From Candidatus Nomurabacteria bacterium (GTDB lineage Bacteria > Patescibacteriota > Patescibacteriia > HK-STAS-PATE-3): a DNA stretch of 64,000 nucleotides. The stretch spans positions 864,001 through 928,000 of the forward strand of contig CP060223.1 of assembly GCA_023898465.1 (NCBI GenBank), in the 5' to 3' direction. Under the pieces are notes generated by a model. The model did not search any database and was not told the origin of the DNA. It saw only the letters and a list, made by a program, of their open reading frames with translations. Positions 2,783 to 23,708 of the stretch are shown here, in pieces (the stretch's first letter is position 1; every line of letters begins with the position of its first letter). A program made the translations under genes and the position numbers.

Positions 2783-4885
2783 ATGATTATACGACGTGAA
2801 ACCTTAGTCACCCTGGCAGTCTCTTTTGGTATTATTATCCTCCTAAGTATTGGTGTGTACTACATTGGCACCTCGATCACACCTCAGAGCAGCAACACGA
2901 ATACGACAACGAATAGCAATCAGAATGTGGCTCCCGGACTGAAGCGTTTTGTGTCAGCTGAGGATTTCTCCCAATATCTGACAAGCGCAAGTCGACTCAA
3001 TACCCAGTATGGACTCCGTGATTCAGTTCTCAATGTAGTTACTCCTACTGCTTTTGAGCTAGAGTCAAGCGGTACTAAGAGCACAGCTGATCGCGTCTCA
3101 CAAACCAACGTGCAGGTAATGGGTATTGATGAGCCGGATATTGCCAAAACAGATGGGCAGCGTATCTACTACAGCCAAGATACCTACTACGGAGCATTGG
3201 AGTATCGAGGTATCAGCGATGAGTTATTAAAAACCTCACCTGCCTATACGCAGACTTCAAGCATTCTCAATGCCATACCAGCAAACGCACTCGCTGTCGC
3301 TGGCACATTACCCACTAGCGGACAGCTGCTCCTGACGGACAACGAAGTGCTTGTCCTGGGCTATGACGGCGTACATGCTTATCCGGCAAATACGAGCACG
3401 GTAAGTGAGGCGACTTGGGAGATGTCCTACGGAGATGCCACTTCATTAGTCACTGCGCGTTTACGAGAAGACACACTCTATCTTGTCACCAGCACCTCAC
3501 TGAATACCACCCAGCCATGCCCGATCACGCCACTACGAATTGCTGAAGGAGATGTGAGCATTGCCTGTACTGATATCTTCCACCCAGTGAATCCAACGCC
3601 AATCGATGTTGTCTACACTGTCTTTGCCATCGACCCAAGCAGTGGTGAAATAAAACAGGAATTAACCCTCAGTGGCCTCTCAGGACAATCTGTTGTCTAT
3701 GTTTCGCCCGAGACCCTCTACCTCACCTATACCTACACGAGTGATTGGGTCAATTCATTCCTAGATATTCTCATCACTGATACTGCTGATATTTTACCTA
3801 GTGAATTAATTGCAAAATTACAAAGACTCCGCACCTATGACTTGAGCGCTGAGGCACGCTTAACCGAGCTCGCCACCTTGCTTGGTGAATATGACGCAAG
3901 CATTTCAAATGAGGAGAAAGAAAACTTCCAAGAACAACTCACCACTGCAGTTGAACAAGGTGTGAAAGAGCGGCTGCGACAATGGGAACGAACTGGGATT
4001 ATTGCGGTTGATCTTGATCGACTGCAAGTGGCAGCGACCGGTGAAGTGCCTGGTCATCCCCTGAATCAATTTTCACTTGATGCTTATGCCGAGACCCTCC
4101 GTATTGCTACCTCCAGCGATGCTCGTTTTGTTGCCTCTTTCTCCGCCACCAGTCAAACAAATAATGACCTCTATATTCTCGACAAAGACTTGAAGCCCTT
4201 AGGCTCTATTCTCAATCTCGGGGAAGCAGGGGAAACTATCTATGGAGTACGCTTTGTCGAAGATACGGGCTACCTTGTTACCTTCCGTCAAACCGATCCC
4301 TTCTACGTCTTAGACCTGAGTGATCCGAAGAAGCCTATAGCTAGCGGCGAGTTAAAAATTCCTGGGTACTCTTCTTACCTGCATCCTATTGCGACGGATC
4401 GCATCCTCGGAGTAGGGCAGGATAATTTTCGTGTGAAGGTTTCTCTCTTTGATGTGAGCGATAAAAATGCGCCAAAGGAACTATCCACGCTTACATTAGA
4501 AAATGAGTACTGGTCTGACGTGCTTAATACTCATCACGCTTTTCTCCAAGATGCTGATCACTCCATCGTCTTTATCCCAGGATCGCAGGGAGGACATGTT
4601 ATCTCCTATACGAATGGAACTTTAAGCGAGGTGAAAAAGATTGAAGGCTTCGCTGTGCAGCGGGCACTCTACATTGATAATACGCTCTATGTCCTGGGCA
4701 GTAGTGAGGTGAGTGCAGTCGATGAAACGAGCTGGGAAACCATAAGCAGCGTAAGTCTCAACCAAAATAGGACAGGGGTTGAAGAGCCACAAAGCACGGA
4801 ACCAAGCGTTCCGATAGAGGACCTGCCAACTACTGAAGCAAATACTGGCGAAGGCACTAGTGCTACAGGCGATTCGACGGAATAG
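2783..4885 (+). CDS. Secreted/membrane-anchored beta-propeller domain protein (Beta_propel-like)
   Basis: N-terminal TM/signal anchor. The C-terminal region FYVLDLSDPKKPIASGELKIPGYSSYLHPI...VSLFDVSD resembles the archaeal/CPR 'beta propeller domain' family. C-terminal E/T/S-rich tail. Confidence 0.55.
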   Translation: MIIRRETLVTLAVSFGIIILLSIGVYYIGTSITPQSSNTNTTTNSNQNVAPGLKRFVSAEDFSQYLTSASRLNTQYGLRDSVLNVVTPTAFELESSGTKSTADRVSQTNVQVMGIDEPDIAKTDGQRIYYSQDTYYGALEYRGISDELLKTSPAYTQTSSILNAIPANALAVAGTLPTSGQLLLTDNEVLVLGYDGVHAYPANTSTVSEATWEMSYGDATSLVTARLREDTLYLVTSTSLNTTQPCPITPLRIAEGDVSIACTDIFHPVNPTPIDVVYTVFAIDPSSGEIKQELTLSGLSGQSVVYVSPETLYLTYTYTSDWVNSFLDILITDTADILPSELIAKLQRLRTYDLSAEARLTELATLLGEYDASISNEEKENFQEQLTTAVEQGVKERLRQWERTGIIAVDLDRLQVAATGEVPGHPLNQFSLDAYAETLRIATSSDARFVASFSATSQTNNDLYILDKDLKPLGSILNLGEAGETIYGVRFVEDTGYLVTFRQTDPFYVLDLSDPKKPIASGELKIPGYSSYLHPIATDRILGVGQDNFRVKVSLFDVSDKNAPKELSTLTLENEYWSDVLNTHHAFLQDADHSIVFIPGSQGGHVISYTNGTLSEVKKIEGFAVQRALYIDNTLYVLGSSEVSAVDETSWETISSVSLNQNRTGVEEPQSTEPSVPIEDLPTTEANTGEGTSATGDSTE

Positions 4886-6188
4886 TCTTTGCGCTCACTG
4901 AAGCCTTGTCCTCAGTGCAGCATTTTTTGCTGCAACCGTTTTGACAACAGCAGCAATCACACTTCCGCCGCCAAAACATAAGCAGAAGTATAAGCAGTAG
5001 CACCAGCAGGCCAAGCACTAGGATGCCAATGGCAATCCAGGAATAAAGCCAGAAGATTCCCGCAAACCAGAAACCACTCTCGGGTGCATATTTCACAACC
5101 TCAACACTGACGGAACTGCTCCGAATATTACCCGCATTGTCGATCGCTAATATGGTTATGGTGTGTGTTCCGTAGCTTAATTCCGGTAAGAGAAAAGGCT
5201 CCGTTGCTCCAGGTAGAGCAATAATGCGCTGCACATCATCAATCAATACTTCGTAGCGATCTATGCCTGACAGGGCGTCCTCAGTGCTGAAATCGATATT
5301 GGGTCGTAGATTGGTTGTTGGTTGATCACCCTCAACTCGGACTGAAAAAGGAAGTGGTGGGGTAGTATCAATCCGAACACGGAAATGGGTAGCCTCACTC
5401 CAGCCCGCTTCGTTTTTCGCTTTAATGTGGAAGTACCAAATACCATCTTCCTTGTCCTGATATTGGACGCTTAGCTCAGTGCCCTGCCCATCATCATTAG
5501 GAATCGTACCGGCACTTTGATCTAGGAGGTAACTAAAATCCTGCGCCTCACCATCAACACTCCAGGAAAGTAGTGGGTCAGCGTTGGCGTACCAAGAGTC
5601 CTGATTCGTGTGCGTATCAGACCAGACTGTTGGAGCAGGTAGTGGCTGCGGCTGAGGTGGTTCTTCTTCCGGTTGTTCTGGCTCAGTGCTTGGCCGTGAT
5701 GGTGGAGGAGCACTAATAACAAGAATGGCCGTGCCAGTTGATCCGAGTGCATCTGTGCCATAACCGTCGTTAAGCAAAACCCGAGCTCCCTCCATACTAA
5801 TAACTGCGGTTCCAGGCTGCTTGGCTTTAAACACTGCACGGAGAATAGTACCAGCCGGACCTGCATAGCCAGGCGTAGGTAAGCCCCCGGTGAAATCAAT
5901 CGTTCCACTGCCATTGTCATACACCGGGCCAATTGGCCAAAGTGTAAATAAGGAACCTCGATCAACTGATTCGAGTGTAACGAGGTCTTTAGGGAAATCA
6001 ATTCTGGCCTCCGCTGAGTTAACCGCCTCACCGCCCGAATTTACAACCAAAGTAACAGTCACTCGTTGTCCAACTGTTACATTTGAGCGAGCCGGGGAAA
6101 AGAATAAGGTTGCTTTAGCAAAAACAAAACTCGGCACCAAAAGTGCAAGTAATGTGAGTCCACTAATGCGAGCTAATCTCTTTTGCAT
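4863..6188 (-). CDS. Cell-surface protein with N-terminal signal peptide, cohesin-like domain, C-terminal TM anchor and Cys-rich cytoplasmic tail
   Basis: The start is chosen at MQKRLARISGLTLLALLVPSFVFA (signal peptide); the track ORF extends to 6236. TVGQRVTVTLVVNSGGEAVNSAEARIDFPKDLVTLESV is cohesin-like. The C-terminal hydrophobic segment is followed by WRRKCDCCCCQNGCSKKCC. It is paralogous to 6163..7308 (shared DQDTWY, QEDGI(W/Y)YF, RV(R/Q)ID(T/A)TPP motifs). Confidence 0.5.
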   Translation of the reverse strand: MQKRLARISGLTLLALLVPSFVFAKATLFFSPARSNVTVGQRVTVTLVVNSGGEAVNSAEARIDFPKDLVTLESVDRGSLFTLWPIGPVYDNGSGTIDFTGGLPTPGYAGPAGTILRAVFKAKQPGTAVISMEGARVLLNDGYGTDALGSTGTAILVISAPPPSRPSTEPEQPEEEPPQPQPLPAPTVWSDTHTNQDSWYANADPLLSWSVDGEAQDFSYLLDQSAGTIPNDDGQGTELSVQYQDKEDGIWYFHIKAKNEAGWSEATHFRVRIDTTPPLPFSVRVEGDQPTTNLRPNIDFSTEDALSGIDRYEVLIDDVQRIIALPGATEPFLLPELSYGTHTITILAIDNAGNIRSSSVSVEVVKYAPESGFWFAGIFWLYSWIAIGILVLGLLVLLLILLLMFWRRKCDCCCCQNGCSKKCCTEDKASVSAKTIPSNRL

Positions 6189-7308
6189 GTTTTTGCTTTC
6201 TGCGTAAACGATAGTGCCATAACAACAGTATAGCAACCAAGAGCAAAAGTACCCAGAAGTACCATGGCAGGACTTGATACCAGGCCTGCGGTAATGCGGC
6301 GAGCTCAGCGGTCTGAATATTACCAGCTAAATCATAGGCCTCGACCCGCACGACATCACTACGCTCCTGATCAACCAGCAAATATGGACTCCGCACATTG
6401 ATAGAACGCTGCCCGCCCTCTATCACGTCATAGCGATCTATACCTGAGGTCCGATCAATACTCTGGAATGAAATAACTGCTTTGCCAGAAAACTCATCTG
6501 CTTCCTTTGTGGAAATTATTTCAAAAGGTTCAGGTGGGGTAGCATCAATCTGCACCCGGTAACGAGCCACCTGACGCCAATCATCACCAGAAGTTCTTTC
6601 AAGGAGTGTAAAATAATAAATACCATCCTCTTGATTATCATACTCAACAAAACCACTCGCATCATCTGGTAATTCATCAGGCTGCTTTTCCGCATTTTGG
6701 GAAAAACTATAACTATATAACGCATTTGCTCGCGGCTCCCAAGTAAGCACCACATCACGTTCAGTGTACCAGGTATCTTGATCTGGATGCGTTGGCGAAT
6801 AAACAGTCACTTGATAGGCTGGCGACTGAATAACATTGATATCGAGTGCCTGCGTTGTTAAAGGAAGACGACTTCCCTCACCATTATGCATATACACTGC
6901 TGCTAGCTCCTTCGGTACAGTAAATCTAGCCTCACCGACTTTTATTGCTCGCAAAGTCATCTGCAATACTGTGGCATGAAAAGCATAGGTGCCGCCTGGA
7001 ATACCGCCAACAAAATGCACAGTGTGGGTTGCTGGCTGGTGAAGAGGAGGCTCAGGCCAAAGCTGTAAAAATGATTGCCCAATGCTAATATCCTCTAAGA
7101 CAAAAAGATCCCCGGGATAATGCACATCCGCTTCGATCGCGTTCATGGGTAAATGGTCACTATCAACCACTACGCTTACCAAAACGGTATCGCCTAAGCT
7201 AATGTTCTCCTGTGGTGCTTGAAGAGAAACTTGAGCAGCCTGAACTGCCTGGGCAAAGAAAATGCCGATACCAAAAAGGCTAAAAAATAGAAGTGAACGC
7301 TTCATCAT
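6163..7308 (-). CDS. Cell-surface protein, paralog of the downstream gene: signal peptide, cohesin-like domain, C-terminal TM anchor
   Basis: MMKRSLLFFSLFGIGIFFAQAVQA signal. GDTVLVSVVVDSDHLPMNAIEADVHYPGDLFVLEDISIGQSF is cohesin-like. The C-terminal TM is WYFWVLLLLVAILLLW followed by a basic tail. Confidence 0.5.
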   Translation of the reverse strand: MMKRSLLFFSLFGIGIFFAQAVQAAQVSLQAPQENISLGDTVLVSVVVDSDHLPMNAIEADVHYPGDLFVLEDISIGQSFLQLWPEPPLHQPATHTVHFVGGIPGGTYAFHATVLQMTLRAIKVGEARFTVPKELAAVYMHNGEGSRLPLTTQALDINVIQSPAYQVTVYSPTHPDQDTWYTERDVVLTWEPRANALYSYSFSQNAEKQPDELPDDASGFVEYDNQEDGIYYFTLLERTSGDDWRQVARYRVQIDATPPEPFEIISTKEADEFSGKAVISFQSIDRTSGIDRYDVIEGGQRSINVRSPYLLVDQERSDVVRVEAYDLAGNIQTAELAALPQAWYQVLPWYFWVLLLLVAILLLWHYRLRRKQKHAKEISSH

Positions 7309-7309
7309 A

Positions 7310-8185
7310 TTAGCCAGTCCAATGGAACATCATAATGCTAAAATCAACCACATCAACTAAGCCACTCTTATCAATATCAGCCCTAGTGTTGGCCGGGTGT
7401 GTATCAAGCCAGTAATAAAGCAAAATACTGAAGTCGACTAAATCAACTGAGCCGTCACAGTTTAAATCAGCAATGTTTGCGTAGCTGCAAGGATCTGGTT
7501 CAGTTGCCTCACTTACTACAAAGGTGAGTGTAGAGCTGTATTCAGAAATGCTGCTATCTGTTGCAACTGCACGAGCTCGAATACTATAGGTTCCAATACT
7601 GCTCAGCTCTTGCCCGCCCTGTAACGTATAAGACCATCGTCCGTCGGTATGAGCCGTTGCAGAAAAACTTTGATCACCATCTGGACCCGAGAGATAAAGT
7701 GTAAGCTGACTATTTGGCGCGGTATAACCTTGAATTTGGACACCTTCATCTAATCGAATACTGCTTGCACTGCCTTGTATGGTGGGGCCGAGAAAAATAC
7801 CACTCGCGCTTACCGTGGTGCCCTCTGCTATAGTAACCGACAAGGATAAACTAGGACCAAGCACGCCGTCTATATCAGTTCCCTGAATAGTGAAAGTGTA
7901 GGTGCCGGCTAAAATTTCGCTCTGAGTAGCAAAAGCAGCTGTACTAGTTGCAGTCGTACTCAACCAGGTACTTCCATTTTTCAATATTTGAATACTTGCT
8001 GAGGGGTAGGCGAGGCCCTGAAACTGTACAATGGTTTTTGGTTCTTCAGGCGGAGGCGGCGCTTCAACCACCGCACTCACCGAGAGTGTGTGCTGATCTG
8101 TCACTGTAGCGGCAAAGGCGCTAAGCAAAAAAAGCGGCAGAATGCTTAGCATGCTGACGACGGCAACGATGCTCCGTGTCTTCAC
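7310..8185 (-). CDS. Secreted dockerin-containing protein (Ig-like T/S-rich body + C-terminal type-I dockerin)
   Basis: Signal peptide. The C-terminus holds two 12-residue Ca-binding loop repeats with exact dockerin spacing, DLNCDGSVDLVDF and DIDKSGLVDVVDF, each followed by a hydrophobic helix. Confidence 0.7.
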   Translation of the reverse strand: MKTRSIVAVVSMLSILPLFLLSAFAATVTDQHTLSVSAVVEAPPPPEEPKTIVQFQGLAYPSASIQILKNGSTWLSTTATSTAAFATQSEILAGTYTFTIQGTDIDGVLGPSLSLSVTIAEGTTVSASGIFLGPTIQGSASSIRLDEGVQIQGYTAPNSQLTLYLSGPDGDQSFSATAHTDGRWSYTLQGGQELSSIGTYSIRARAVATDSSISEYSSTLTFVVSEATEPDPCSYANIADLNCDGSVDLVDFSILLYYWLDTHPANTRADIDKSGLVDVVDFSIMMFHWTG

Positions 8186-8202
8186 AGGTACTCCTATCTT
8201 AC

Positions 8203-9237
8203 TTATTGCTGGTTGGCGCGAGTAAGGATCCAGTGGTTATAGCGCTTGATGCCAAAGATGACTGCAAGCACTACTACAACCAAGATGAGGAACATGAGCG
8301 TTAAGACGCGCCATGGCCACACCCAGAAGGTTAAGGTTGCGCTATCTTTTACCAAATCACCAGTACCAGCTGTCAGACTCACGCTGGCTTGATAGCGACC
8401 AAGCGCAAAGTTGTTCCATTCGTTACGGAATTCGGCCCAAAAGTTACCCCAGATATTACCTGGCGTTTCTTCTACTGTTGATTTTTCCCAGGTCGTTTCA
8501 TAGCGACGGATCGAGTCTGGTAAGGTTGCTCCGCCATTCTGATTCATGACAAGCTCAGCGCTAGTGCTGCCAAATAGATTTTTCACTACAACGCTTCCGG
8601 TTGGACGAAGGTGAATATTTCCCTCGTTTTGGAAACGAGTTGCAAAAGTCGCTGGTAAACGATTTAGACTCGAACCTTCATCTACAGTAAATTCAACGAT
8701 GCTGCCCTTTTCCTCTACGTCACCAAAAACACGGAGTAAGAAAAGCGAGCCAAGTTTGGTGCCAAGTGACACGCTGCCGGGCTCGGAATTTTCTGGTGGC
8801 TCAGTTGAGAAGAAGACAGTAGCATAATGACCACCTGGCTCGGCATCATTTGGTGGGGTGATGGTAATCGGTACCACGCGACGTTCGCCAGCTTCTAGGT
8901 GGACTGAACCATTTGGCAAAGAAAACCAAGAGGCAATATCAGGTACCTCACCGCTGAAATCATAGGTTGGAGTACCATCTTCACCAGAAGCAGTAAAGGT
9001 AGTTACCTCAGGGTAGAGGTCTACTGCGCTCTGTGTTTCATTAAATAGCTTAATTTGCGTATCAAACGGCACACCTGGATCAACCGAGGCCTCAAAAGAA
9101 GGAGGAATAAGGGTTAAGGCTTGCGCATTTGGAGTTTGCACAAAGGCAAAGCTAAAAGCAGCAACGAGCACAAATAGGCCCAGGATCGCTGTTTTTTGCA
9201 AAATGTTACTTTGTTTTCCCCCTTGATTCATCTTCAA
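8203..9237 (-). CDS. Secreted protein with N-terminal signal peptide and C-terminal TM anchor, unknown family
   Basis: N-terminal ILGLFVLVAAFSFAFV and C-terminal VLTLMFLILVVVVLAVIFGI hydrophobic segments. The architecture is reminiscent of membrane-anchored components of Gram-positive surface-complex loci. No motif is recognised with confidence. Confidence 0.4.
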   Translation of the reverse strand: MKMNQGGKQSNILQKTAILGLFVLVAAFSFAFVQTPNAQALTLIPPSFEASVDPGVPFDTQIKLFNETQSAVDLYPEVTTFTASGEDGTPTYDFSGEVPDIASWFSLPNGSVHLEAGERRVVPITITPPNDAEPGGHYATVFFSTEPPENSEPGSVSLGTKLGSLFLLRVFGDVEEKGSIVEFTVDEGSSLNRLPATFATRFQNEGNIHLRPTGSVVVKNLFGSTSAELVMNQNGGATLPDSIRRYETTWEKSTVEETPGNIWGNFWAEFRNEWNNFALGRYQASVSLTAGTGDLVKDSATLTFWVWPWRVLTLMFLILVVVVLAVIFGIKRYNHWILTRANQQ

Positions 9238-9272
9238 TAAAAATTCAACAATACCTGTGGATTACTTTACCA

Positions 9273-10343: not shown

Positions 10344-10353
10344 AGTCTATTGA

Positions 10354-11424: not shown

Positions 11425-11427
11425 TCT
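11312..11427. repeat. 116-bp segment identical (1 mismatch) to 12497..12612: 5' coding end + upstream region of paralogs 2 and 3
   Basis: tcagaaatactcgtcaaattggcagcaaaaaccggtcgagctgggaa[g/a]ctcaacaccgttac...ccgtacattct is present at both sites. Confidence 0.7.
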
Positions 11428-11505
11428 GAAAGTAATATAGAGGCTAAAACTCTACAAAACAAGCTTTCTAGGTATTAGAATAGCATAAAATTGAGTTCTC
11501 GTCAA

Positions 11506-12609: not shown

Positions 12610-12612
12610 TCT
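12497..12612. repeat. Second copy of the 116-bp repeat (see 11312..11427)
   Basis: See the first copy. Confidence 0.7.
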
Positions 12613-12668
12613 AGAAATCGAAAACATCCTAATGAATAAAACACTATAGAACTTAAGACGTCAACTGA

Positions 12669-15600: not shown

Positions 15601-18600
15601 AAAGATTCTCCATCAGAGGTTATTGTTTGCGTCGAGGACCCATCAAGAATAACAGTTGACTGATCCGCGGTGAAAGTAGCGCTCCCACCAAAAATCATGC
15701 TCCCAGCTACATTAATTGTTGTTTCATCAGTCTCAACATCATCAGTGGCATCAAGTGTCCCATTAATAGTGAAAGTACTGTTAATATCCATTTCATATCC
15801 ATTAGTGTATAGGGTATCACCGGCGGCGATCGTTAAACTCAAGTAAGTCATATCAGTACCTAAGTTCAAACTGTCAGGAGAGGTACCAACCTGGACATTA
15901 CCTTGATTCTGCTTTGTCGCATTATTATCGTAAGCAAAAACATCTGCATCAAAAATCATTGTTCCACTACCAGTCGGACCGGTAAAAAGACCTCCGCTCG
16001 CCAAAGTGAAATCGCCAGCGATATTCATATTGACATTAGCATCGGCAGTGAAGCTCCCTGCGCTAACATCAAAAGTGCCATTCACATCCATGGCATCGGT
16101 ATTACTAATACTGCCACCAGTCACATCAAAATTTTGCAGGGCGGTAGTCGCCGATGTGAGCGTCTTTGACGTGCCATCCATCTCAAGGATGTTACCTGTA
16201 GAAATAGTAGTGGTCCCATCACTTAAATCAATATTTCCCGAGACGGACCAAGTGCCTGCTCCAGTAACTATCTGACCGTTACTCGAACCAAGCTTCACAT
16301 AAGAGACATCACCTGTAATTGAAACATCAGGGTCATTGTTATCACCGGTTAATGCAACAACTTGATTGTCTTCAACGGTTACTATTAAGGATCCGCTAAT
16401 AGTATGCGTACCAGCGCCCATATCGACCAACACACTAGTGAAGGAGGTGCCATTTGTATACACTTCTACATCATTACCGTAGGTACGAGCCGGCATGGTC
16501 ATATTACCTCCAGCACCAGCATCAAAACGAACAACTGAGGAGAGGGTGCCGCCTGTTGGAATTGTTGTCGTTGTTGCTACGGTTAAGCGTCCCGCTCCAG
16601 TAATTGAACCTGATAAAGTAAAACTTGACCCGGACCAGGTAACGGTACGACCTGATGAAATGCTTAAGGTGTCACTACTAGAAACAACTAAACTATTCGT
16701 AATCTCCACATCGCTTGTCTGCACGGTGATCGTGCCTGTTGAGCTAGGATCAACTGTAAAATTATACAGACTGTTTCCACCACCGCTGAACGTTTCTGCT
16801 GTTCCAGTCATTTTTAAATCCGCTGTAGAAACGACACTATAGGTGCCGTCCTGAAAATCAATACTACCCGCCACACTCCATGCGCCAGTGCCTGGCTCAA
16901 GGTCCTCGGTGCCTGTACCAACACCTGTGAAATCAATATCTCCTCCAATAGTAACAGTTGGGTTATTTGTTGAACCGTAAAAGTGAATATCACTACCATT
17001 TGCCGCGTTTAGAGTGAAATTATCTGATACAATAATACTGCCGGATCCACCAGTCACACTCGTCGTGCCGCCAAAAGGAGCGTTATTGTAAAGTTCCACA
17101 TAGCCTCCGTAGGTCCTCGCTGACATTGTCTGGTTATTACTCGTGGCATCAAAGCGTAGATTTGCTGAAAAGGTTCCAGTCGTGGGGAAGGCGGTAGTAG
17201 ATGTATAGATAAGTAAGCCAGCTCCTGAAATAATGCCTGATAAGGTTAAGGTGGATCCGCTATGTGTTAAGGTACGGCCGGTATCAATAACGAGTTGATC
17301 ATTTGATCCGACATCTAAAGTGCCACTCACTGTCAGGTCCGAAGTTTGCAAAGTGGTGGCTCCGCCAAATAGTGCATCAATGGTGAGATTATAAAGAGTG
17401 TTTCCGCCTCCAACTATAGTCACAGCGGTGCCGCTCATAACAACGGTTGAAGTTCCAGCTGTTACTGTTCCACCAGCCATATTAAGGTTGCCAGTTATGT
17501 TGTGACTTTCACTAGAAAGAGTAACAGTGCCTGAGAGCGTGAGATTTTTATATATGTTTCCTGCAATTGTTAGCGTCCCACTCCCATCCATCACTAGTGT
17601 ATTTGTACCTTCAATGGTATAGGTGCCGTTCGTAAAGTCAGCGCTACCTGAAACAGTCCAGGTCCCGGCCCCTGAGGTAATTGTTTCAGTTCCAGCCCCT
17701 GCTCCAGTGATAAAGTCTAGATCGCCTCCGATATTTACATCAGGATCATTGGTAGCCGCATCAACCGTAACAGAACAGTTACTGTATCCTTCGATTTCAA
17801 GATTTCCATCAATCGTAATGGTCTGACTACCCGCAGATCCAAAATTAACTTCTCGAGAACTCAGACCGCAGTCAGCCTGAATATAGATACTACCCCCAAA
17901 GGTTCTGCCTGGAATAGTATGGTCAGCGGTTGTTGGGTAAAAGAAAACATTCGCGTCCATGGTCCCGGTGGACGGAAAAGTTGCTGGGGTATAGTAATAG
18001 ACATACGCATTACCGCTGATGGTTCCGTTCAACACGAGTGAGGTGCCGGTATCATTATATAAATCAAAGTAAGACCCTGACTGAAGTGCTGCTTCATCAT
18101 TCGCGGCAACGGTTAAGGTATTATCAACAGCCACGCCATCATTAATAGTGATCGTCCCTGCCGAGCTGGGATCAATCTCTAAATCATAGAATGTGGCGCC
18201 ATTTGCCCAAATATTTCCACTAGTGCCAGTCATGACAAAGGTATGCCCAGTGGCAATATTTGTTGCCCCAGGGTCACGGAGATCAAGATTACCGCCGATC
18301 GACCAGGTACCACTACCGGTCGTAATATGTTCAAAAGAGCCTGGTCCATCTTCACGATCTAAATCGCCACCAATAACCAGATCGGGATTCCAAACCGAAC
18401 CATCTATAGTTGCCGATGAACTCTGCGCATAAATTAAAAAGCTTCCGTTAATAGTAATGGTTTGTGAGGCAGCACTCCCTAATATCAACTTATAAGAAGA
18501 AAGACCTCCTTGATAGTATTCCACATCACCCTGGTAGGTACGTGCAGTCATGGTTCGATCAGCAGATCCAGAATAGTACTGCAGTAACGCGCTAATAACT

Positions 18601-21600
18601 CCCGTTGTAGGGAAGAGTTCGCTTGTCTTATAAATAACTTTTCCAGATCCTGAAATTGTACCGTCGAGAGAGATCGCCGTTCCTGTTGTCCTAATTAAAT
18701 TAACAGTCCGGCCACTATCAATTACTAATTCACCATTACTCGAGACAGTTAATACCTCTGAGATTGAAAAATCAGAAGTCTGCATAGTAATTGTTCCTGC
18801 AGAGCTTGGACTAATACTAAGATTACGTAGGGTGCGATTATCTGCCACAATGGTATTACTCGTACCCGTCATAACAAAGAGATTTCCAGATGATGAGCTT
18901 AAATTACCATTGGAGAAATCAATATCCCCTCCAACAGTCCAAGTGCCACTGCCTGTTAAAATATATTCCTGCCCGGACCCAACCCCAATATACAAAAGAT
19001 CACCGCCTATGTTTACGGTAGGATTATAGGTGGTGCCATAAATATATTGGTAATTGGTACCTGCAGCATTTATCCATAAATCACCGTCGATGGTTACTGT
19101 TTGACCTGACGAACTGCCCATATACATCACACGAGCAGTGCTTCCACTGTTGTACGCTTCCACACTACCTCCATAGGTACGACCACTTAAACGAGGATTT
19201 CCGTTAGTTGTATCCATGCGAAGATTCACGCTGATAGTGCCTGTAGTAGGAAAGTTAGTTGTCGACGCATAGCTCACCCATCCACTACCACTTAAAATCC
19301 CGTTGAGCGTAAGCACGGTGCCTGTTGTCTTTGAGAGCGTTATAAATACAGCGCTATCTAAACTAAATGTGTCGCTGGTTTGGACGGTCAAAGCGTTGCT
19401 AATGGTGAAGTCATTAGTGTTCGCAGTGATAGTTCCAGTTGAGCTTGGATTAATAACCACATTATAGTGTTGCTGATCGGTATTGAAGGTATTGCTGGTG
19501 CCGGTCATTGTGAGCGTACTAGTATTACTCGTCAGCCCTCCACTGCTTGTCATGGTGTAATTTCCTCCTACGGAAATACTGGCCGAACCAGCATATACAA
19601 CCGCGCCGCTTGAAGTATGAGAGAAATTTCCACTGATTGTTACAGGTGTTTTAGTAATCGTGAGACTGCCGGACATGCTCGTCACTGAAATGCTTGCCAC
19701 GGTTGCAACCGCACTAGTATCCCAGTCCGAGTTATCATTACTGGTACCGTCAAAAATTATATCGTCACTGGTGCCTGGACATGTATCGTTATTCCAGTTT
19801 GCACATTCAGACCAGCTGGCAGTTGTTCCATCACCATCCCATGTCTTGGTTGCGTCAGCCGCGATCTGCCAGAGTCGAGCTTCAGTAAACGCAATGCTCT
19901 CATCTCTACGAGTAAACTGCAGCGGTCCCAACTGATAGAAGAATGGTGAAACATTTGGTGCATCAAAAGTGTAAGCAAGGGTATATTCCTCTCCTGCTAG
20001 CCAATCCACTTCCCATTGAATAATGCGATGTCCATCTTGCGGATCACTTACCGTGCCATCGCCACTGATAGCACTTATCGCAAAGGTATCCGGAACCTCT
20101 TCGGTAACTATTCCCTGAAAACCCTCGCTAGTTTGAACGGTAAACTGTACCGGGTATTGAGCGGGAGGATAAATGCGTGTAGGAAACTCTGTGCGCTGTA
20201 CTGAAAAAGGCACTACATCCGCCAGAGAAAAATGATCTTGAATTTGTCGCGTGCCATCCTTGGTAGTGGCTTGTACATCAACTTGATATTCACCTTCTTG
20301 AGTCCCAGTGTAGAAGAATGAATAATCCGGCTCGTTTGTCACGCTTTTATCTACACAATCAGGGTTCTTTTCAATCGTCGCGTCGCTGGTATGAAATACT
20401 GAGGCACTGCCTGATGGATCAGTTACGGTGACATCAATATTTGCATCGCAAACTGTTCGCCCTAAATCATCCACTACTGCTAAGTGCACTTTTTGTGCCG
20501 TGTTTGTCGGGGCTAAAGACTGTCGTACATTTACTGCTACTACGCCCCAATAAAAAGTTTGTGTAAGCACTTTATCTTCCCCTAAGGCAGTCGTCGCAAT
20601 CTCAACTTCATACTTACCTGGTCGCCCAAAATCAGCTTCACTGAAACGAAGCTCTAGCTCCCCCTCAGCAGTGAGTACTTCACTCGGATCAGATTGAATT
20701 TCTTCACCAACAGGCGTACGCAACTTCACCTCTTTAACTAAAACAGTTGAGACGGGTGATTGCTTTGTTGTCTCAACCGGGTGCATCGCTTTCAGTTTCA
20801 TCACCGGCTCTTCATCAGCTTGAATAACCTGTGTTTCAGTTTCCAAACTTAGATCATCGCTAGAAGGAAGTGGGATAAAGATGGGTGTTTCATTTGTCCT
20901 TTCATCTACGTGTAGCTGCCACGCGTGCTGCTCAGACCAGCTACTTCCATAGGTCTGATTATTTCGAAACTCGGCAAAGCCATCGGCACGAAGCGGACCA
21001 AGAACAAAAGATTGAGGTGTCTGCTCCGGGGCTTTCACGACATAGGAGAGGCTAGCTGATTCACCTTTTTTCCAAACTACAGACCACTGCAACTCATCGC
21101 CAATTTGCTTTCCCCCTTGCCCAACACTACTTATTTTTAAATTGGCAGGTATGGGCTCTACAACGGTGCCAATATAGTCGTCTCCAACCACAAATTCTAA
21201 AAAGACATCGTAACTCTGTTTAGGCACCAAGCGGGTTGGAGCGATTCGCGTCAGCTGCAAATTTGTCTGCTCAACAACCTCTAAAGTGCTTTGCGCTCGA
21301 TATGTGCCAGCGTATGAGGATGCATCTAAGCGTATTCGATACTCGCCAACTTCATCGAGAGGAAAGGAGGCCAAATAATCGGCCACGCTACTCACTACAT
21401 CAGGACTGCAGTCCTCTGAGCGCTGGATACCTTCAGTCAATGCATAGTCATTGTGCACACCTGATGGTGAAATCGTCTCAATATGCACATCCGCATTGCA
21501 AATTGTCCTACCATTATTATCAAGAAATCCTAGGGAAAGTTGCGCAGTATCATTTAATTGATAGACTGATCGAGCGTCGTTCATAATAACCACTCCCCAG

Positions 21601-22625
21601 TCAAAAGCCTTACGAATGGTTTGCACTACGTCATCTTGCTGCAATGTAAAGACGGCAATATAGCGACCGGGTGTATGAAAATTTTCCCTATCAAATGACA
21701 CTAGGGTTTGCTGACCCCCGCTCACTTTTTCTGCAGTAGTATGTACTGCGGGGTGATATTCCTTATCATCAGGATCGATGAGAGAAACGGATTGAATGTT
21801 GCGTTGGAGTGGCTTCACACCCAAGAAGCCAAACGATGAATTTTCTTCAGTTTGGATTTTTACTTGCGGAGTATCGAGTGAGAAAAAGGTTGTCGCGTCC
21901 ATTTGCACATATTCACCTAAGCGCAAGCTTGTCTTTGCTTCTCGTCGATAGGTGAGTTGGAGGCGAGCGCCATCAAAATAGGCTGTAGCTGAGTCAAGCG
22001 GCGGCTCTGGAATATATCGTACGCGCACCATAAAATCCTTCGCTTGGGTAAGTGCATCAATGCCATCGATGTGATAAGTCCAGTATCCACTGTGTCGTGC
22101 ATTACTTTGCTCTTCCAGAAGCGCAAAAGAGTCTAGGGAAATCCAATTAATTCCACCGTCAATTGAATACGCAAAAACTACAATATCCTCGTTATTTGCA
22201 TAAGTATTTGCCGCGAAAGAAAGATCAAGCATGGCATCAATATCAACTGCATCAGCTGGAATAGCATCAGAAAAAGCAAAATCCCCGCAGGTCAACCAAG
22301 CCTCGCCATTCTGTAAGGGCTGCGCATCTATGTTATCAGGACTGTTTTGAAACCAAGCCGCATTCTCACGCGTAAAATCGCCTGCATCAGCAGATCCAGG
22401 CAAATCAAGCTCCTGGGCTCCTTCGGTAAAATTCCATCCTTCGCAAGACCCGGGATTAAGTTGGACTGCACTTTCGCCAGCTACCAACATTTTTTGTCGG
22501 ACGTAGTAGGCGCTCTGAAAATCAACCGGCTGCAATGCGGGCAAAAGAAATAGTCCAGCCACAAGCAGGGTAAAAATACCAAGCAATCCTAGCGCTTGGC
22601 CGGTATGAACTACCTGCGTATGCAT
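12669..22625 (-). CDS. Giant (~3,318 aa) secreted surface protein: signal anchor, duplicated N-terminal domains, ~5 tandem ~180-aa beta-helix-like T/S/G-rich modules, and a C-terminal domain homologous to the three small paralogs
   Basis: A single uninterrupted minus-strand ORF. The ATG start is chosen at MHTQVVHTGQALGLLGIFTLLVAGLFLLPA; the track start at 22697 is a TTG. Recurring module ...L(T/S)L(N/D/S)G(T/I)ISG(S/A)G...Y...T..FPTTGT(I/F)S(A/V)NLRFD.... A ~110-aa segment (CS(T/A)SFTPG(I/V)DFA...NVGRSDAS) is duplicated. The last ~170 aa align to the paralogs at 9273-12609. Confidence 0.7.
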   Translation of the reverse strand: MHTQVVHTGQALGLLGIFTLLVAGLFLLPALQPVDFQSAYYVRQKMLVAGESAVQLNPGSCEGWNFTEGAQELDLPGSADAGDFTRENAAWFQNSPDNIDAQPLQNGEAWLTCGDFAFSDAIPADAVDIDAMLDLSFAANTYANNEDIVVFAYSIDGGINWISLDSFALLEEQSNARHSGYWTYHIDGIDALTQAKDFMVRVRYIPEPPLDSATAYFDGARLQLTYRREAKTSLRLGEYVQMDATTFFSLDTPQVKIQTEENSSFGFLGVKPLQRNIQSVSLIDPDDKEYHPAVHTTAEKVSGGQQTLVSFDRENFHTPGRYIAVFTLQQDDVVQTIRKAFDWGVVIMNDARSVYQLNDTAQLSLGFLDNNGRTICNADVHIETISPSGVHNDYALTEGIQRSEDCSPDVVSSVADYLASFPLDEVGEYRIRLDASSYAGTYRAQSTLEVVEQTNLQLTRIAPTRLVPKQSYDVFLEFVVGDDYIGTVVEPIPANLKISSVGQGGKQIGDELQWSVVWKKGESASLSYVVKAPEQTPQSFVLGPLRADGFAEFRNNQTYGSSWSEQHAWQLHVDERTNETPIFIPLPSSDDLSLETETQVIQADEEPVMKLKAMHPVETTKQSPVSTVLVKEVKLRTPVGEEIQSDPSEVLTAEGELELRFSEADFGRPGKYEVEIATTALGEDKVLTQTFYWGVVAVNVRQSLAPTNTAQKVHLAVVDDLGRTVCDANIDVTVTDPSGSASVFHTSDATIEKNPDCVDKSVTNEPDYSFFYTGTQEGEYQVDVQATTKDGTRQIQDHFSLADVVPFSVQRTEFPTRIYPPAQYPVQFTVQTSEGFQGIVTEEVPDTFAISAISGDGTVSDPQDGHRIIQWEVDWLAGEEYTLAYTFDAPNVSPFFYQLGPLQFTRRDESIAFTEARLWQIAADATKTWDGDGTTASWSECANWNNDTCPGTSDDIIFDGTSNDNSDWDTSAVATVASISVTSMSGSLTITKTPVTISGNFSHTSSGAVVYAGSASISVGGNYTMTSSGGLTSNTSTLTMTGTSNTFNTDQQHYNVVINPSSTGTITANTNDFTISNALTVQTSDTFSLDSAVFITLSKTTGTVLTLNGILSGSGWVSYASTTNFPTTGTISVNLRMDTTNGNPRLSGRTYGGSVEAYNSGSTARVMYMGSSSGQTVTIDGDLWINAAGTNYQYIYGTTYNPTVNIGGDLLYIGVGSGQEYILTGSGTWTVGGDIDFSNGNLSSSSGNLFVMTGTSNTIVADNRTLRNLSISPSSAGTITMQTSDFSISEVLTVSSNGELVIDSGRTVNLIRTTGTAISLDGTISGSGKVIYKTSELFPTTGVISALLQYYSGSADRTMTARTYQGDVEYYQGGLSSYKLILGSAASQTITINGSFLIYAQSSSATIDGSVWNPDLVIGGDLDREDGPGSFEHITTGSGTWSIGGNLDLRDPGATNIATGHTFVMTGTSGNIWANGATFYDLEIDPSSAGTITINDGVAVDNTLTVAANDEAALQSGSYFDLYNDTGTSLVLNGTISGNAYVYYYTPATFPSTGTMDANVFFYPTTADHTIPGRTFGGSIYIQADCGLSSREVNFGSAGSQTITIDGNLEIEGYSNCSVTVDAATNDPDVNIGGDLDFITGAGAGTETITSGAGTWTVSGSADFTNGTYTIEGTNTLVMDGSGTLTIAGNIYKNLTLSGTVTLSSESHNITGNLNMAGGTVTAGTSTVVMSGTAVTIVGGGNTLYNLTIDALFGGATTLQTSDLTVSGTLDVGSNDQLVIDTGRTLTHSGSTLTLSGIISGAGLLIYTSTTAFPTTGTFSANLRFDATSNNQTMSARTYGGYVELYNNAPFGGTTSVTGGSGSIIVSDNFTLNAANGSDIHFYGSTNNPTVTIGGDIDFTGVGTGTEDLEPGTGAWSVAGSIDFQDGTYSVVSTADLKMTGTAETFSGGGNSLYNFTVDPSSTGTITVQTSDVEITNSLVVSSSDTLSISSGRTVTWSGSSFTLSGSITGAGRLTVATTTTIPTGGTLSSVVRFDAGAGGNMTMPARTYGNDVEVYTNGTSFTSVLVDMGAGTHTISGSLIVTVEDNQVVALTGDNNDPDVSITGDVSYVKLGSSNGQIVTGAGTWSVSGNIDLSDGTTTISTGNILEMDGTSKTLTSATTALQNFDVTGGSISNTDAMDVNGTFDVSAGSFTADANVNMNIAGDFTLASGGLFTGPTGSGTMIFDADVFAYDNNATKQNQGNVQVGTSPDSLNLGTDMTYLSLTIAAGDTLYTNGYEMDINSTFTINGTLDATDDVETDETTINVAGSMIFGGSATFTADQSTVILDGSSTQTITSDGESFYNLSITNSSGSYSGCSTSFTPGIDFADSATVSNNYTITTNNVKVEYNSGSTYTITNINWSASTGNDIIFRNSNLSSGTWLLDVSGTQTAVSYVNVGRSDASSGDQIDASDGTNTDCLNNTNWLFAAGINLSGIAYTNEGTTPLDGSGVNKTVTLKVNGSGSYTDEITDSSGAWSITSVPANSTDIVTVYLDDETEEATTVLVSDGVAKTDIDLYQNTVIVRADTGSISNANLNTGDSGDDDIKYSVSGSAATFDSGFELHIWNGDTYAPAGNITTQAADVHIDNSTLSVGSSFVILGGGWNNDGTFSHTSGYVLFQAGSGTYDIDADGTGSDFFNNVEFNDSGGGAEWNLLTDMDVNGYLTIYGGTFDFNGANTLYVAGNFTNNDTIIESTGNLVLNATSGTQYIDTSEASSLAATNLNNLELNDAGGSATYKTIYPLDINGDVNITGGTFDLSGPTAWYLTSDTSGYGSSWRMKPVDPSGSSNDTTKCDDTGTGQSGYCTFVPGNTSTTWDGSIPSAITNTGWMLNNGQPITGTFAAGTWSVDITTVYTAGSCSYGRRQVNARLWKADADLANPVAISGWKNVNISTGTNDYAIFITGIPEETLTNQVLYVEFAIWLAIPSCGGSSPTQVALRVNEGGTKQKVNSTAFSPELTLAGDWANSDTFTHGNSRVVLDGSSLQTLSGTMTSASSFYDLAIENSSGSYSGCSASFTPGVDFAAAATTAGEYTITTSDVKVEYNSGSTYTMNDINWDGQTYGSEIIFRNSSLGSGTWLLDVSGAQTVKFVNVGRSDASGGDLIDSSHVSNIDCQNTTNWDFDAVQFSISDTSVGFGPLSTSGARYATGDASGTGTKTSAHTISVRTSADDGYALTYYGPLLTSGSDDINAATISNDDDGAPGSEQFGIACTTDGDATIASGYDATSPADYSFVANTTTTIASEAGSTATENFSIYYIANAAGTTPAGSYSTDITYVVTGKF

Positions 22626-22710
22626 CTGCAATTGTGCCTTCGGATTTTTCTTTGTTCTTTGACGTGGTGTCGGCACCGAAGCCCCCTCGAAAAGCAAAAA
22701 AAGTTGTTAC

Positions 22711-22719
22711 ATTATACCA
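22711..22719 (-). promoter_or_regulatory. Extended -10 element (TGgTATAAT) upstream of the giant surface-protein gene
   Basis: The minus strand reads aaaaaaTGGTATAATgtaacaac, about 85 nt upstream of the proposed ATG at 22625. Confidence 0.4.
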
Positions 22720-22825
22720 TTTTTTGCCTGTAACGTCGATTAAAGAAAAAGGGAATATAGCACCGTACTATCACAAGACAGCCATGCGGTCATGGAAGAG
22801 ATAATTTAAACAAAGTTCCTTTGTG

Positions 22826-23218: not shown

Positions 23219-23222
23219 AGCT

Positions 23223-23675: not shown

Positions 23676-23708
23676 ACCCTACGGCTTCTCTTGTTTTTTT
23701 GCAACTGG

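Follow-up and report, generated by a model that had tools for sequence, protein, structure and literature searches.

An 18-kb gene cluster of an ultra-small Patescibacteria bacterium most likely builds a thin Pam-type surface fibre

Two described systems are among the closest to the gene cluster analyzed here. The Pam pilus of Candidatus Mycosynbacter amalyticus comprises the pilins PamA, PamB and PamE, the tip PamT, the chaperones PamC and PamD and the anchor PamR, and both the Pam family and its mechanism have been defined by cryo-EM at 2.8 and 3.6 Å (10.64898/2026.03.03.709456). [quoted passage not shown]

The window, the whole stretch of 64,000 nucleotides of contig CP060223.1 from a Candidatus Nomurabacteria bacterium, carries eight tightly packed genes on the minus strand at 4863-22697, with intergenic gaps of -26 to 81 nt. 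The ORFs extend over 4863-6236, 6163-7308, 7310-8185, 8203-9237, 9273-10343, 10354-11424, 11506-12627 and 12669-22697. An N-terminal hydrophobic signal-like segment was found in each of the eight proteins; in addition, a hydrophobic helix lies at the C-terminus of the 344-, 381- and 457-aa proteins. This is in agreement with an earlier sequence-only reading of the locus, which described co-directional, packed or overlapping genes with only secreted or membrane-anchored products, among them a protein with a signal peptide and a C-terminal TM segment (the 344-aa protein). The features are as follows.

4797..4813, minus strand: terminator-like hairpin just past the last gene of the run (consensus match only)
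4863..6236, minus strand: Cohesin + Big_13 + OmpL47-type + TM protein, 457 aa (Cohesin 25.6 bits, cut-off 24.1)
6163..7308, minus strand: cohesin-like TM-anchored protein, 381 aa, paralog of the 457-aa protein and proposed dockerin socket (TM 342-369)
7310..8185, minus strand: dockerin protein, 291 aa, proposed chain terminator/base adaptor (Pfam Big_13, Dockerin_1)
7331..7471, minus strand: dockerin module with two Ca-binding-type repeats (PF00404 25.4 bits, cut-off 22.9)
8066..8086, minus strand: donor-like strand LSVSAVV, residues 34-40 of the dockerin protein (ortholog alignment)
8203..9237, minus strand: membrane-anchored chaperone-like protein, 344 aa (model pLDDT 92.9, helix 309-343)
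9273..10343, minus strand: pilin paralog 1, 356 aa (NF058581 72.1 bits)
9765..9797, minus strand: linker/donor strand DDSVNVTATVD, residues 183-193 of paralog 1 (conservation, AF2 model)
10354..11424, minus strand: pilin paralog 2, 356 aa (NF058581 67.4 bits)
11506..12627, minus strand: pilin paralog 3, 373 aa (NF058581 71.9 bits)
12669..22625, minus strand: giant, proposed tip adhesin, 3,318 aa (C-terminus NF058581 77 bits, cut-off 55)
12672..13157, minus strand: Pam pilin C-terminal (acceptor) domain of the giant, last 162 aa (NF058581 E 1.6e-21)
22711..22739, minus strand: promoter-like site just upstream of the giant gene (TCGACG, 17 nt, TG-TATAAT)

The promoter-like site is the best of the region, as a consensus match only, and the total count of such sites in the region is not above that in shuffled sequence. 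There is a good probability that the cluster forms one operon for a Pam-type pilus, a fibre without an usher that would extend by donor-strand exchange at the outside of the cytoplasmic membrane. The most likely role of these 18 kb in the CPR/Patescibacteria host is to build a thin surface fibre of the Pam type.

The last 162 aa of the giant are 59% identical to residues 195-356 of paralog 1 (E 1e-55), and the giant and the three paralogs all terminate in DITY(I/V)(A/V)T(A/G)(T/V/K)F, which confirms the homology noted earlier. The sequence-only reading held that the shared domain matched no known family and might be a new assembly module for a surface appendage of CPR cells. However, all four C-termini pass NCBIfam NF058581 (67-77 bits, cut-off 55). 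This model is CPR_Pam_pilin_C, "Pam pilus system pilin subunit", and its source is a cryo-EM preprint of 2026 which describes the assembly of CPR pili through donor-strand exchange (10.64898/2026.03.03.709456). The reading as a dedicated appendage system thus stands, but its domain was already curated. The HMM search proposed as a check gave this match in NCBIfam and none in Pfam, whose 2025 copy still has no entry for the domain, which explains why it could not be placed. A motif check of the paralogs found no LPXTG, class-III signal or W-x-L, as had been stated. Although the domain belongs to a characterised family, the known partner of that family, a membrane-anchored chaperone, is present; the reading as a system therefore holds and only the claim of novelty falls.

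The three paralogs share 61-75% identity over their full length. From its N-terminus on, paralog 3 has a signal peptide, a beta-sandwich domain, a linker strand and the Pam C-terminal domain; its public match, P0145, has 367 aa, consistent with a start at the internal MYGKLQ. The AF2 model of paralog 1 (pLDDT 92.7) shows the same architecture of N-domain (30-178), linker strand and C-domain (195-353), and the linker (180-194) has no secondary structure and lies free in this monomer model. The linker stretch also occurs in paralogs 2 and 3 and is near-invariant in homologs (V185 in 69/71, V191 in 71/71). The donated linker is likewise the most conserved part of Pam pilins according to the preprint (10.64898/2026.03.03.709456). 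Against the assignment, no Pam entry came up in fold searches with the model of the entire pilin, the matches being generic Ig-like proteins and Gram-positive pilins only.

The 344-aa protein starts with a signal peptide and ends with a TM helix, and two Ig-like beta-sandwich domains lie in between. In its model it folds like a two-Ig-domain chaperone and is anchored in the membrane. The best Foldseek match of the model is the WxLIP of E. faecium (PDB 9i1y/9i25, E 4e-11), followed by CfaA, CsuC, Caf1M, SafB and other chaperones of this kind (E 6e-9 to 1e-6). Since Pfam WxLIP (DUF916) matches were found in 26 of 60 members of the chaperone family, and hhalign gave a probability of 93% for the chaperone against WxLIP, the protein is a WxLIP homolog. 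The logic of WxL/csc complexes, or of pilus subunits plus a tip adhesin, that had been seen in the cluster was essentially right, and because of this homology the WxL comparison is more than an analogy. By its architecture the protein would be a counterpart of PamC/PamD, and it probably works as the pilus assembly chaperone, although WxLIP is a stable partner in the literature and not a transient chaperone.

It could also be proposed that the TM protein permanently holds the C-domains by strand complementation, so that monomers are displayed on the envelope and no fibre is formed. Such a display would suit a WxLIP homolog, as WxLIP is modelled to bind WxL stably and to complete its beta-sandwich, and a WxLIP-long WxL complex is available (PDB 9i25), and the logic of one domain common to small and large proteins is the same. 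However, the C-domain passes a Pam pilin model whose founding members are polymers resolved by cryo-EM, the near-invariant interdomain linker with its alternating hydrophobic pattern would be pointless in a monomer, and a groove-less dockerin protein with the same strand is hard to explain without strand exchange. We consider this display unlikely.

Counted from a TTG, the giant ORF has 3,342 codons; counted from the ATG at 22625 (MHTQ...), it encodes 3,318 aa, the length given by the sequence-only reading. Its product begins with an N-terminal signal/anchor, two modules of ~340 aa and about six tandem G/T/S/N-rich repeats of ~210 aa, and ends with a duplicated ~190-aa module and the Pam pilin domain. 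No Pfam match was found for it even when it was searched in pieces. The PamT model NF058579 gave 47.6 bits against a cut-off of 240, and this low score counts against a Pam-type reading. The linker strand is absent from the giant, whose homology to the paralogs begins exactly past the linker position. Related loci contain 12 ORFs with the C-terminal domain only and a length of 650 aa or more, several of them incomplete at a contig or fetch edge, and the linker motif is absent from all 12. Among the best 150 of 1,136 family representatives, the Pam domain is at the extreme C-terminus in all, and 37 have at least 1,000 aa. With an acceptor domain and no linker in its sequence, the giant is probably the tip adhesin of the fibre.

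In the 291-aa protein, the signal peptide is followed by a donor-like strand, the spacer PPPPEEP, two Ig-like domains and finally a dockerin, the repeats of which read DLNCDGSVDLVDF and DIDKSGLVDVVDF. Its strand LSVSAVV, right past the signal peptide, resembles the pilin linker VNVTATV. The strand alignment comprised 39 sequences (38 orthologs and the window protein), and the donor-like motif was found in 33 of the 38 orthologs, compared with 0/102 chaperones, 2/84 cohesin proteins and 28/5,307 other ORFs (0.038 per 1000 aa), an enrichment of ~70-fold over background. A dockerin protein that starts, as judged from its sequence, with a pilin-linker-like strand is new here. Within loci, no covariation of this strand with the pilin linker was found, so its specificity for the pilin groove is putative. 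We suggest that this protein terminates the chain and attaches the base of the pilus to cohesins in the membrane. The 381- and 457-aa proteins are paralogs (domain E 3e-15 and 4e-26); the latter, counted from a TTG with the likelier start at the ATG at 6188, has a Cys-rich cytoplasmic tail. The dockerin protein and the two cohesin-like TM-anchored proteins named by the sequence-only reading are thus present, but the Pfam Cohesin and Dockerin scores barely exceed their cut-offs, which counts against the proposed pilus; rather than being partners nearby, they appear as the pilus anchor itself.

Cohesin and Dockerin_1 matches, together with the repeat-rich, low-complexity composition of the giant, might instead indicate a cellulosome- or S-layer-like scaffold, in which the pairs organise enzymes or an envelope lattice and the giant is a structural wall protein. 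This is very improbable, as Pfam and NCBIfam searches found no catalytic, carbohydrate-binding or SLH domain in the eight proteins, there is a single dockerin protein, and four proteins are in the Pam pilin family.

A survey of relatives for a conserved neighbour, as had been advised, showed that the gene set and its order are conserved across species. The dockerin gene directly follows the chaperone gene in 36/36 dockerin-type species-level loci, and two cohesin-TM genes then follow in 35, the contig of the 36th ending first; this order is new here. Another explanation is that cohesin and dockerin form an independent module, for example for tethering other dockerin proteins, the pilus being anchored by the TM segment of the chaperone or released. 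Cohesin-dockerin pairs are generic surface connectors, Pam pili detach easily according to the preprint (10.64898/2026.03.03.709456), and the missing covariation would fit. However, beside the constant gene order just given, every locus of this Pam family that has cohesin genes also has the dockerin gene, the triplet following the chaperone gene lies between pilin/chaperone gene sets in L001, L003, L004 and L006, and the enrichment of the linker-like strand also argues against independence. The other locus type has at the same gene position a protein of ~1,100-1,300 aa with a pilin N-domain, C-terminal TM segments and no C-domain, and the linker motif was found in 7/18 of those examined (strict regex). 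It looks like a direct membrane-anchored base subunit, which also speaks against an independent module; we give that alternative only about a one-in-eight chance.

For a Pam-type pilus, the following assembly can be proposed. All parts would be exported by Sec, and the membrane-anchored chaperone would cap the C-domain groove of each newly secreted subunit. The giant, having a groove and no donor strand, could only be at the distal tip, with its repeat region of 3,100 residues as the adhesin. The linker strand of each pilin would enter the groove of the preceding subunit, so that the fibre would grow from the base, until insertion of the dockerin protein, with a donor strand and no groove, ended growth. 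Its C-terminal dockerin would bind the cohesins of the two TM-anchored proteins and fix the pilus base to the membrane; together they would stand in for the single TM-anchored terminator of the type system, PamR. We infer strand insertion, subunit order and cohesin-dockerin pairing, no filament having been seen for this organism.

Compared with the Pam pilus, the cluster has the same C-terminal pilin domain above the curated cut-off, several pilin paralogs per operon with a beta-sandwich N-domain, a linker donor strand and an open C-domain, a PapD-like chaperone that retains a C-terminal TM helix, no usher and a CPR host; in both, as proposed for this cluster, the tip is a C-domain without linker and the base a strand donor without C-domain. 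However, the C-domain of the proposed tip is here part of an adhesin of 3,318 aa, whereas PamT has a single domain of 241 positions, and the proposed base is a secreted dockerin protein with two cohesin-TM proteins instead of the TM-anchored, RbmA-like PamR, no counterpart of which is present in the cluster (a point against). There is one chaperone gene instead of two. Of the conserved neighbours in the preprint, no ATP synthase was found among the ORFs scanned, and MFS only as a 184-aa fragment (29409-29963). The preprint emphasises Saccharimonadia and Microgenomatia, unlike the titles of the loci related to this one, which are Kerfeldbacteria, Uhrbacteria, Parcubacteria and similar, with one Microgenomatus auricola and several 'uncultured Saccharibacteria'. 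The preprint contains no mention of adhesins, cohesin, dockerin, WxL or DUF916 (10.64898/2026.03.03.709456).

Chaperone-usher pili of Gram-negative bacteria (Pap, Fim, Caf1, Csu, CFA/I) share the two-Ig-domain chaperone fold. In the assembly proposed here, further likenesses would be the completion of an incomplete Ig-like subunit by the strand of a neighbour, a fibre that begins with its tip adhesin and grows at the base, and a terminator without acceptor function, as in PapH or FimI. They differ from the system here, which lacks both an usher and an outer membrane; its chaperone is membrane-anchored, and its subunits have an extra N-domain with the interdomain linker as donor. Pfam PapD or usher families were not detected in the cluster proteins. 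As in the cellulosome, with the anchoring scaffoldins of Clostridia, a secreted protein bears a two-repeat Ca-binding-type dockerin and cell-bound proteins encoded alongside bear cohesin modules. However, what anchors the cohesin carriers here is a TM helix instead of SLH domains or sortase, and the proposed cargo of the putative cohesin-dockerin pairing is a pilus base, not enzymes.

The differences from WxL systems lie in the domain, the donor and the anchor. The pilin C-domain has Y-x-I and Y-I-A at the places corresponding to W-x-L; none of 75 pilin C-domain representatives matched Pfam WxL, WxL proteins did not match NF058581, and profile-profile comparison gave P of only 0.008-0.023. The proposed donor strand lies between two domains as a linker instead of extending the N-terminus, the proposed anchor uses cohesin-dockerin in place of LPXTG/sortase, and WxL systems have been described as platforms bound to peptidoglycan and not as fibres. 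The likenesses are a chaperone-like protein homologous to WxLIP, which completes the WxL sandwich by a strand; a C-terminal domain of 160-190 aa common to small and large secreted proteins; adhesive domains on the large protein, the E. raffinosus locus having a 'pectate lyase-like adhesive domain' protein; and a short anchored protein with the N-terminal strand and the Pro-rich spacer of the small subunits, as in the dockerin protein. The probable assembly chaperone of this bacterium thus has a relative in the WxL surface systems of gut Gram-positives.

The eight minus-strand open reading frames between 4863 and 22697 form a tight co-directional run, in which neighboring genes are separated by at most 81 nt or overlap slightly, as the sequence-only reading had described:

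12669..22625, minus strand, giant protein
11506..12627, minus strand, paralog 3
10354..11424, minus strand, paralog 2
9273..10343, minus strand, paralog 1
8203..9237, minus strand, chaperone-like protein of 344 aa
7310..8185, minus strand, dockerin protein of 291 aa
6163..7308, minus strand, cohesin-like protein of 381 aa
4863..6236, minus strand, cohesin protein of 457 aa

The largest frame has 3,342 codons when counted from a TTG and encodes 3,318 aa, the length reported earlier, when counted from the ATG at 22625. It is followed by three paralogs of 373, 356, and 356 aa with mutual identities of 61-75%. The C-terminus said to be common to the giant and the paralogs was recovered by BLASTP, with residues 195-356 of paralog 1 aligning to the last 162 residues of the giant (59% identity, E 1e-55), and all four proteins end in DITY..T..F. 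An N-terminal hydrophobic signal-like segment is present in all eight proteins, which agrees with the earlier view that the run encodes secreted or anchored proteins only, and the 344-, 381-, and 457-aa proteins have an additional C-terminal hydrophobic helix. The proposed dockerin and cohesin partners were also found in Pfam, each barely above the gathering score: the 291-aa protein matches Dockerin_1 (PF00404, 25.4 vs 22.9) and Big_13, and the 457-aa protein matches Cohesin (PF00963, 25.6 vs 24.1) and Big_13. The 381-aa protein is counted as a cohesin solely through its paralogy to the 457-aa protein. A motif check likewise found no LPXTG or class-III signal, and no W-x-L in the paralogs. 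H6760_04325, H6760_04330, and H6760_04335 are hypothetical proteins in the public annotation. A promoter and terminator scan gave counts not above those in shuffled sequence, and the two best sites are suggestive by their positions alone.

The run is flanked by genes of other kinds. Directly upstream (22826-26120, minus strand) lie genes for MsrB, a 150-aa C39-like cysteine peptidase domain protein, an ABC-2 type permease with its ATPase, and MsrA; no link between this block and the pilus was established. On the other side, a plus-strand frame at 2783-4885 is convergent with the operon, shares 23 nt with the end of the last cohesin gene, and encodes a 700-aa secreted or anchored Beta_propel protein (PF09826, E 5e-98), which may be another surface protein. 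The 321-aa frame at 1780-2745 (minus strand) matches only the N-terminal ~338 of 798 positions of PEP synthase/pyruvate, water dikinase and represents a split gene or else a stand-alone fragment of the ATP-grasp type.

The shared domain had been thought to match no recognized family. This holds for Pfam, in which no family was found for it with the eight locus proteins or with 75 pilin representatives, but not for NCBIfam release 20, in which NF058581 (CPR_Pam_pilin_C, "Pam pilus system pilin subunit"; cut-off 55 bits) matches the three paralogs (72.1, 67.4, and 71.9 bits) and the last 209 aa of the giant searched alone (77.0 bits). The family has been known only since 2026. Searches of PDB sequences with a pilin and with a profile of this C-domain returned no relatives. 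Pam pili have been described from cryo-EM of filaments of Ca. Mycosynbacter amalyticus, in whose pilins, PamA and PamB, a single linker strand joins a beta-sandwich N-domain to a truncated Ig-like C-domain that takes up the linker of the adjacent pilin (bioRxiv 10.64898/2026.03.03.709456). The operon also encodes a third pilin, PamE; PamT, a C-domain protein without a linker that is the proposed tip; two PapD-like chaperones with a retained C-terminal TM helix, PamC and PamD; and PamR, the proposed terminator and anchor, which has an N-terminal strand, two FnIII-like domains, and a TM helix. The system has no usher (10.64898/2026.03.03.709456).

The paralogs have the features of such pilins. 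In the AF2 model of paralog 1, built on a 71-sequence alignment (pLDDT 92.7), strands are predicted in residues 30-178 and 195-353, and residues 180-194 between them are without secondary structure in the monomer. No stretch of the protein is more conserved among the 71 homologs than this linker, DDSVNVTATVD, with the pattern D-D-x-V-x-V-T-A-T-V-D-P (V185 in 69, A189 in 62, T190 in 64, and V191 in all 71). In a search of 1.84 billion proteins, the C-domain profile matched 1,136 cluster representatives, 520 of them at E ≤ 1e-10; among the best 150 of the 1,136, the domain lay at the extreme C-terminus in every case, and 37 of these proteins were at least 1,000 aa long. We consider it very likely that the locus is a Pam-type pilus locus. 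Within it, the first ~40 residues of paralogs 2 and 3 are identical (MYGKLQKIQIAILIAVFVTVLSFPARPVFAANLTSISDTL; 11300-11424 and 12490-12609), and near-identical hairpin-forming DNA occurs at both 5' ends (11346-11365 and 12531-12550), which points to a recent duplication or gene conversion of these ends.

In a high-confidence model of the 344-aa protein (pLDDT 92.9), a signal helix is followed by two beta-sandwich domains, and residues 309-343 form a helix at the C-terminus. Foldseek against the PDB ranked the WxLIP of E. faecium first (9i1y, 9i25, E 4e-11) and next the chaperone-usher chaperones CfaA, CsuC, Caf1M, YadV, SafB, and DraB. In Pfam, 26 of 60 members of the chaperone family match PF06030 (WxLIP_PGBD, formerly DUF916), and the protein in the window itself falls below the Pfam thresholds. 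The family profile had EfmWxLIP1 as its sole match among PDB sequences (E 0.013), and hhalign aligned the family with eight plasmid-borne WxLIP proteins over the DUF916 domain with 93% probability (E 2.5e-7). We regard the homology of the chaperone to WxLIP as real.

The similarity between the giant and the paralogs starts exactly at ITFS(L/I)SDT, right after the position of the linker, and the sequence of the giant ahead of this point is unrelated to the linker. In the related loci, none of the 12 CTD-only (C-domain only) frames of at least 650 aa carries the linker motif, which is replaced by a conserved ..DASDGTN.D..N..CW.. junction. A subunit that can accept a strand and has none to donate can be placed only at the distal end, and the giant is therefore probably the tip adhesin. 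Outside its C-domain, the giant is made up of about six ~210-aa repeats in tandem, which are 35-46% identical, together with two modules of ~340 aa and a duplicated module of ~190 aa; no Pfam family was found in it, whether it was searched whole or as five pieces. CTD proteins of the giant type recur in many species. CPR bacteria live attached to other cells, and the manner of first contact is largely unknown; how Pam pili recognize a host is likewise stated as not known (10.64898/2026.03.03.709456). This type of locus offers a candidate host-recognition protein, namely, a giant, fast-evolving tip adhesin attached to the fiber by a pilin domain.

We searched one genome of each GTDB species with the alignment of the chaperone; this gave 397 encoding stretches, and 78 loci were retrieved. 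The titles of the records mostly name Patescibacteria lineages; the rest are uninformative or other ("uncultured Gammaproteobacteria," Pirellulales, Methylomirabilis), and the non-Patescibacteria titles are taken to be mislabels. Many public MAG contigs that carry this CPR-specific locus have "uncultured Gammaproteobacteria," "Pirellulales," "Bdellovibrionales," or "Methylomirabilis" in the title (L008, L010, L016, L018, L023, L050, L062, and others of the fetched loci); they are probably mislabeled or mis-binned, and the "Nomurabacteria" label of the window is also uncertain. A close relative (L001, 13364-15100; L002, 9108-10829) has three small genes for T4SS_pilin proteins (PF18895) ~2.3 kb downstream of its Pam-like locus, so that two different surface-filament gene sets are adjacent there.

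A dockerin-protein gene immediately follows the chaperone gene in 36 of the 78 loci, and two cohesin-TM genes come next in 35 of these, the contig of the 36th ending first. In the fetched loci, cohesin genes are always accompanied by the dockerin gene, and the triplet is flanked by pilin and chaperone gene sets in several of these loci. The dockerin protein of the window consists of an N-terminal strand, two Ig-like domains, and the dockerin, and it has no TM segment. In the dockerin proteins as a group, a conserved strand, x-V-[ST]-[VI]-[ST]-A-[TV]-V, stands right after the signal peptide and is followed by a Pro-rich spacer (TLSVSAVVEAPPPPEEP in the window); it has the pattern of the pilin linker, V-x-V-T-A-T-V-D-P. 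A regular expression for it matches 33 of 38 dockerin orthologs and 39 of 97 C-domain proteins, in the latter immediately ahead of the C-domain; among chaperones, cohesin proteins, and other frames, the counts are 0 of 102, 2 of 84, and 28 of 5,307. Within loci, no covariation was found between the dockerin-protein strand and the pilin linker (4.35 vs 4.48 of 7 positions). The cohesin and dockerin genes appear to encode the anchor of the pilus, and we lean toward the dockerin protein being its terminator and anchor. The function of the base would here be divided between one chain-ending dockerin carrier and two TM cohesin carriers; the genes of these proteins strictly co-occur. A dockerin that plugs the base of a fiber into membrane cohesins may extend the roles of cohesin-dockerin pairs beyond cellulosomes.

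The cytoplasmic tail of the 457-aa cohesin protein beyond the TM helix (4863-5000) is very Cys-rich (RRKCDCCCCQNGCSKKCC) and could be a metal-binding or lipidation patch. The ortholog of this protein is enlarged to roughly 740-990 aa in L009-L018, L020, L021, L023, and L071, while the 381-aa type is constant; the two carriers may put the socket at different heights above the membrane.

The loci titled Uhrbacteria belong to another type of locus (L034, L039, L045, L046, L050, L051, L055, L058-L063, L072-L075, L077, and L078). The gene after the chaperone there encodes a protein of ~1,100-1,300 aa in which a signal peptide and C-terminal TM segments accompany a pilin N-domain but no C-domain. 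These proteins end in a conserved FDKKFNKLLETQ..G.YGFF module, and 7 of the 18 examined have the linker motif under a strict regular expression. They are probably base subunits anchored directly in the membrane. CTD-only proteins of the size of PamT are almost confined to this type. The slot after the chaperone seems to be reserved for a donor-only, membrane-attached base subunit.

For assembly, we infer the following order. All parts would be exported by Sec, and the chaperone would cover the groove of each new C-domain. The giant would nucleate the tip, and pilins would then join at the base through insertion of the linker. Growth would stop when the dockerin protein competes successfully for the last groove, and its dockerin would then bind the cohesin-TM proteins. 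Such a stop is analogous to the stochastic termination of type 1 pili by FimI.

Compared with the published systems, the locus is closest to Pam, and the class of system is already known from the preprint and the NCBIfam models. The likeness lies in the pilin C-domain above the NF058581 cut-off, the two-domain pilin model whose linker is among the most conserved parts, and a PapD/FimC-like chaperone with a C-terminal TM helix as in PamC and PamD, the last judged from the model and its fold matches. However, the PamT model NF058579 (cut-off 240 bits) gives at best 47.6 bits, with the C-terminus of the giant, which has a linker-less C-domain instead; a phmmer scan, which was not exhaustive and also missed the CTD of the giant, found no CTD-only frame of PamT size in the window. 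There is also no RbmA-like PamR with a C-terminal TM helix, and the dockerin protein parallels PamR except that a dockerin takes the place of this helix. The published description of Pam does not include a giant tip fusion, a base of cohesin and dockerin, or homology to WxLIP, and WxL and DUF916 are not mentioned in the preprint (10.64898/2026.03.03.709456). Unlike chaperone-usher systems, the locus contains no usher or PapD Pfam families, and its chaperone is TM-anchored rather than soluble in the periplasm. A cellulosome or S-layer scaffold was rejected because there are no enzymatic, CBM, or SLH domains.

In WxL/csc systems, WxLIP (DUF916, DUF3324, and a TM helix) is encoded next to the proteins that share a domain, as is its homolog here. 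However, the paralogs lack W-x-L, the Pfam WxL family (PF13731, with two Trp-x-Leu motifs) matches none of 75 pilin representatives, LPXTG, as in the small LPXTG protein of those systems, is absent from all eight proteins, and the relatives are all CPR MAGs, not Bacillota. HMMER gave no cross-matches between the Pam C-domain and the WxL domain, and WxL proteins miss NF058581. The hhalign comparison of the two domains (P 0.023 and 0.008 vs 0.11 for a reversed control) is too weak for a claim of homology; three motifs are collinear under greedy settings only, which is not significant. Distant homology at the level of the fold is still conceivable. A strand of WxLIP has been predicted to complete the WxL sandwich (Hassan et al., PMC10599100), and a limited literature search turned up no proposal of strand exchange in WxL systems. 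In WxL loci on Firmicute plasmids, an N-terminal strand and a Pro/Glu-rich spacer right after the signal peptide are common to the small WxL proteins and the small LPXTG (CscD-type) protein of each locus and are specific to that locus (for example, AYDSNGVTSF..EEPVEEP vs SYTSNGAVDF..DPTNPVNP):

L081, 3179-5792, shared N-terminal strand
L084, 4131-6792, shared N-terminal strand
L085, 5602-6784, shared N-terminal strand
L086, 5554-6709, shared N-terminal strand
L083, 4829-5812, shared N-terminal strand

The NCBIfam LPXTG model NF053819 also matches the first ~60 residues of small WxL proteins. The LPXTG protein is thus related to the small WxL proteins as the dockerin protein is to the pilins. 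It looks like a donor-strand-only, wall-anchored base subunit, which suggests that WxL systems may polymerize. Based on the homology of the chaperones and on the strand and spacer common to WxL and LPXTG proteins, we tentatively raise the possibility that Pam pili and the WxL/csc systems of Bacillota belong to one ancient superfamily of usher-less, donor-strand-assembled fibers in single-membrane bacteria. Its common parts could conceivably be a membrane-anchored WxLIP-type chaperone, a large acceptor-only tip adhesin, small shaft subunits, and a donor-strand-only base, and the anchor of the base might, on the same speculative footing, be interchangeable among a TM helix (PamR and the ~1,200-aa proteins), LPXTG with sortase (CscD-type), and a dockerin-cohesin pair (this locus). 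If this is true, the WxL "platforms" of enterococci, listeriae, and lactobacilli are short pili. The homology between the chaperone and WxLIP ties a system of uncultured lineages to a medically relevant one, the surface proteins of enterococci and listeriae, which are poorly understood, and brings a concrete, testable assembly model for both.
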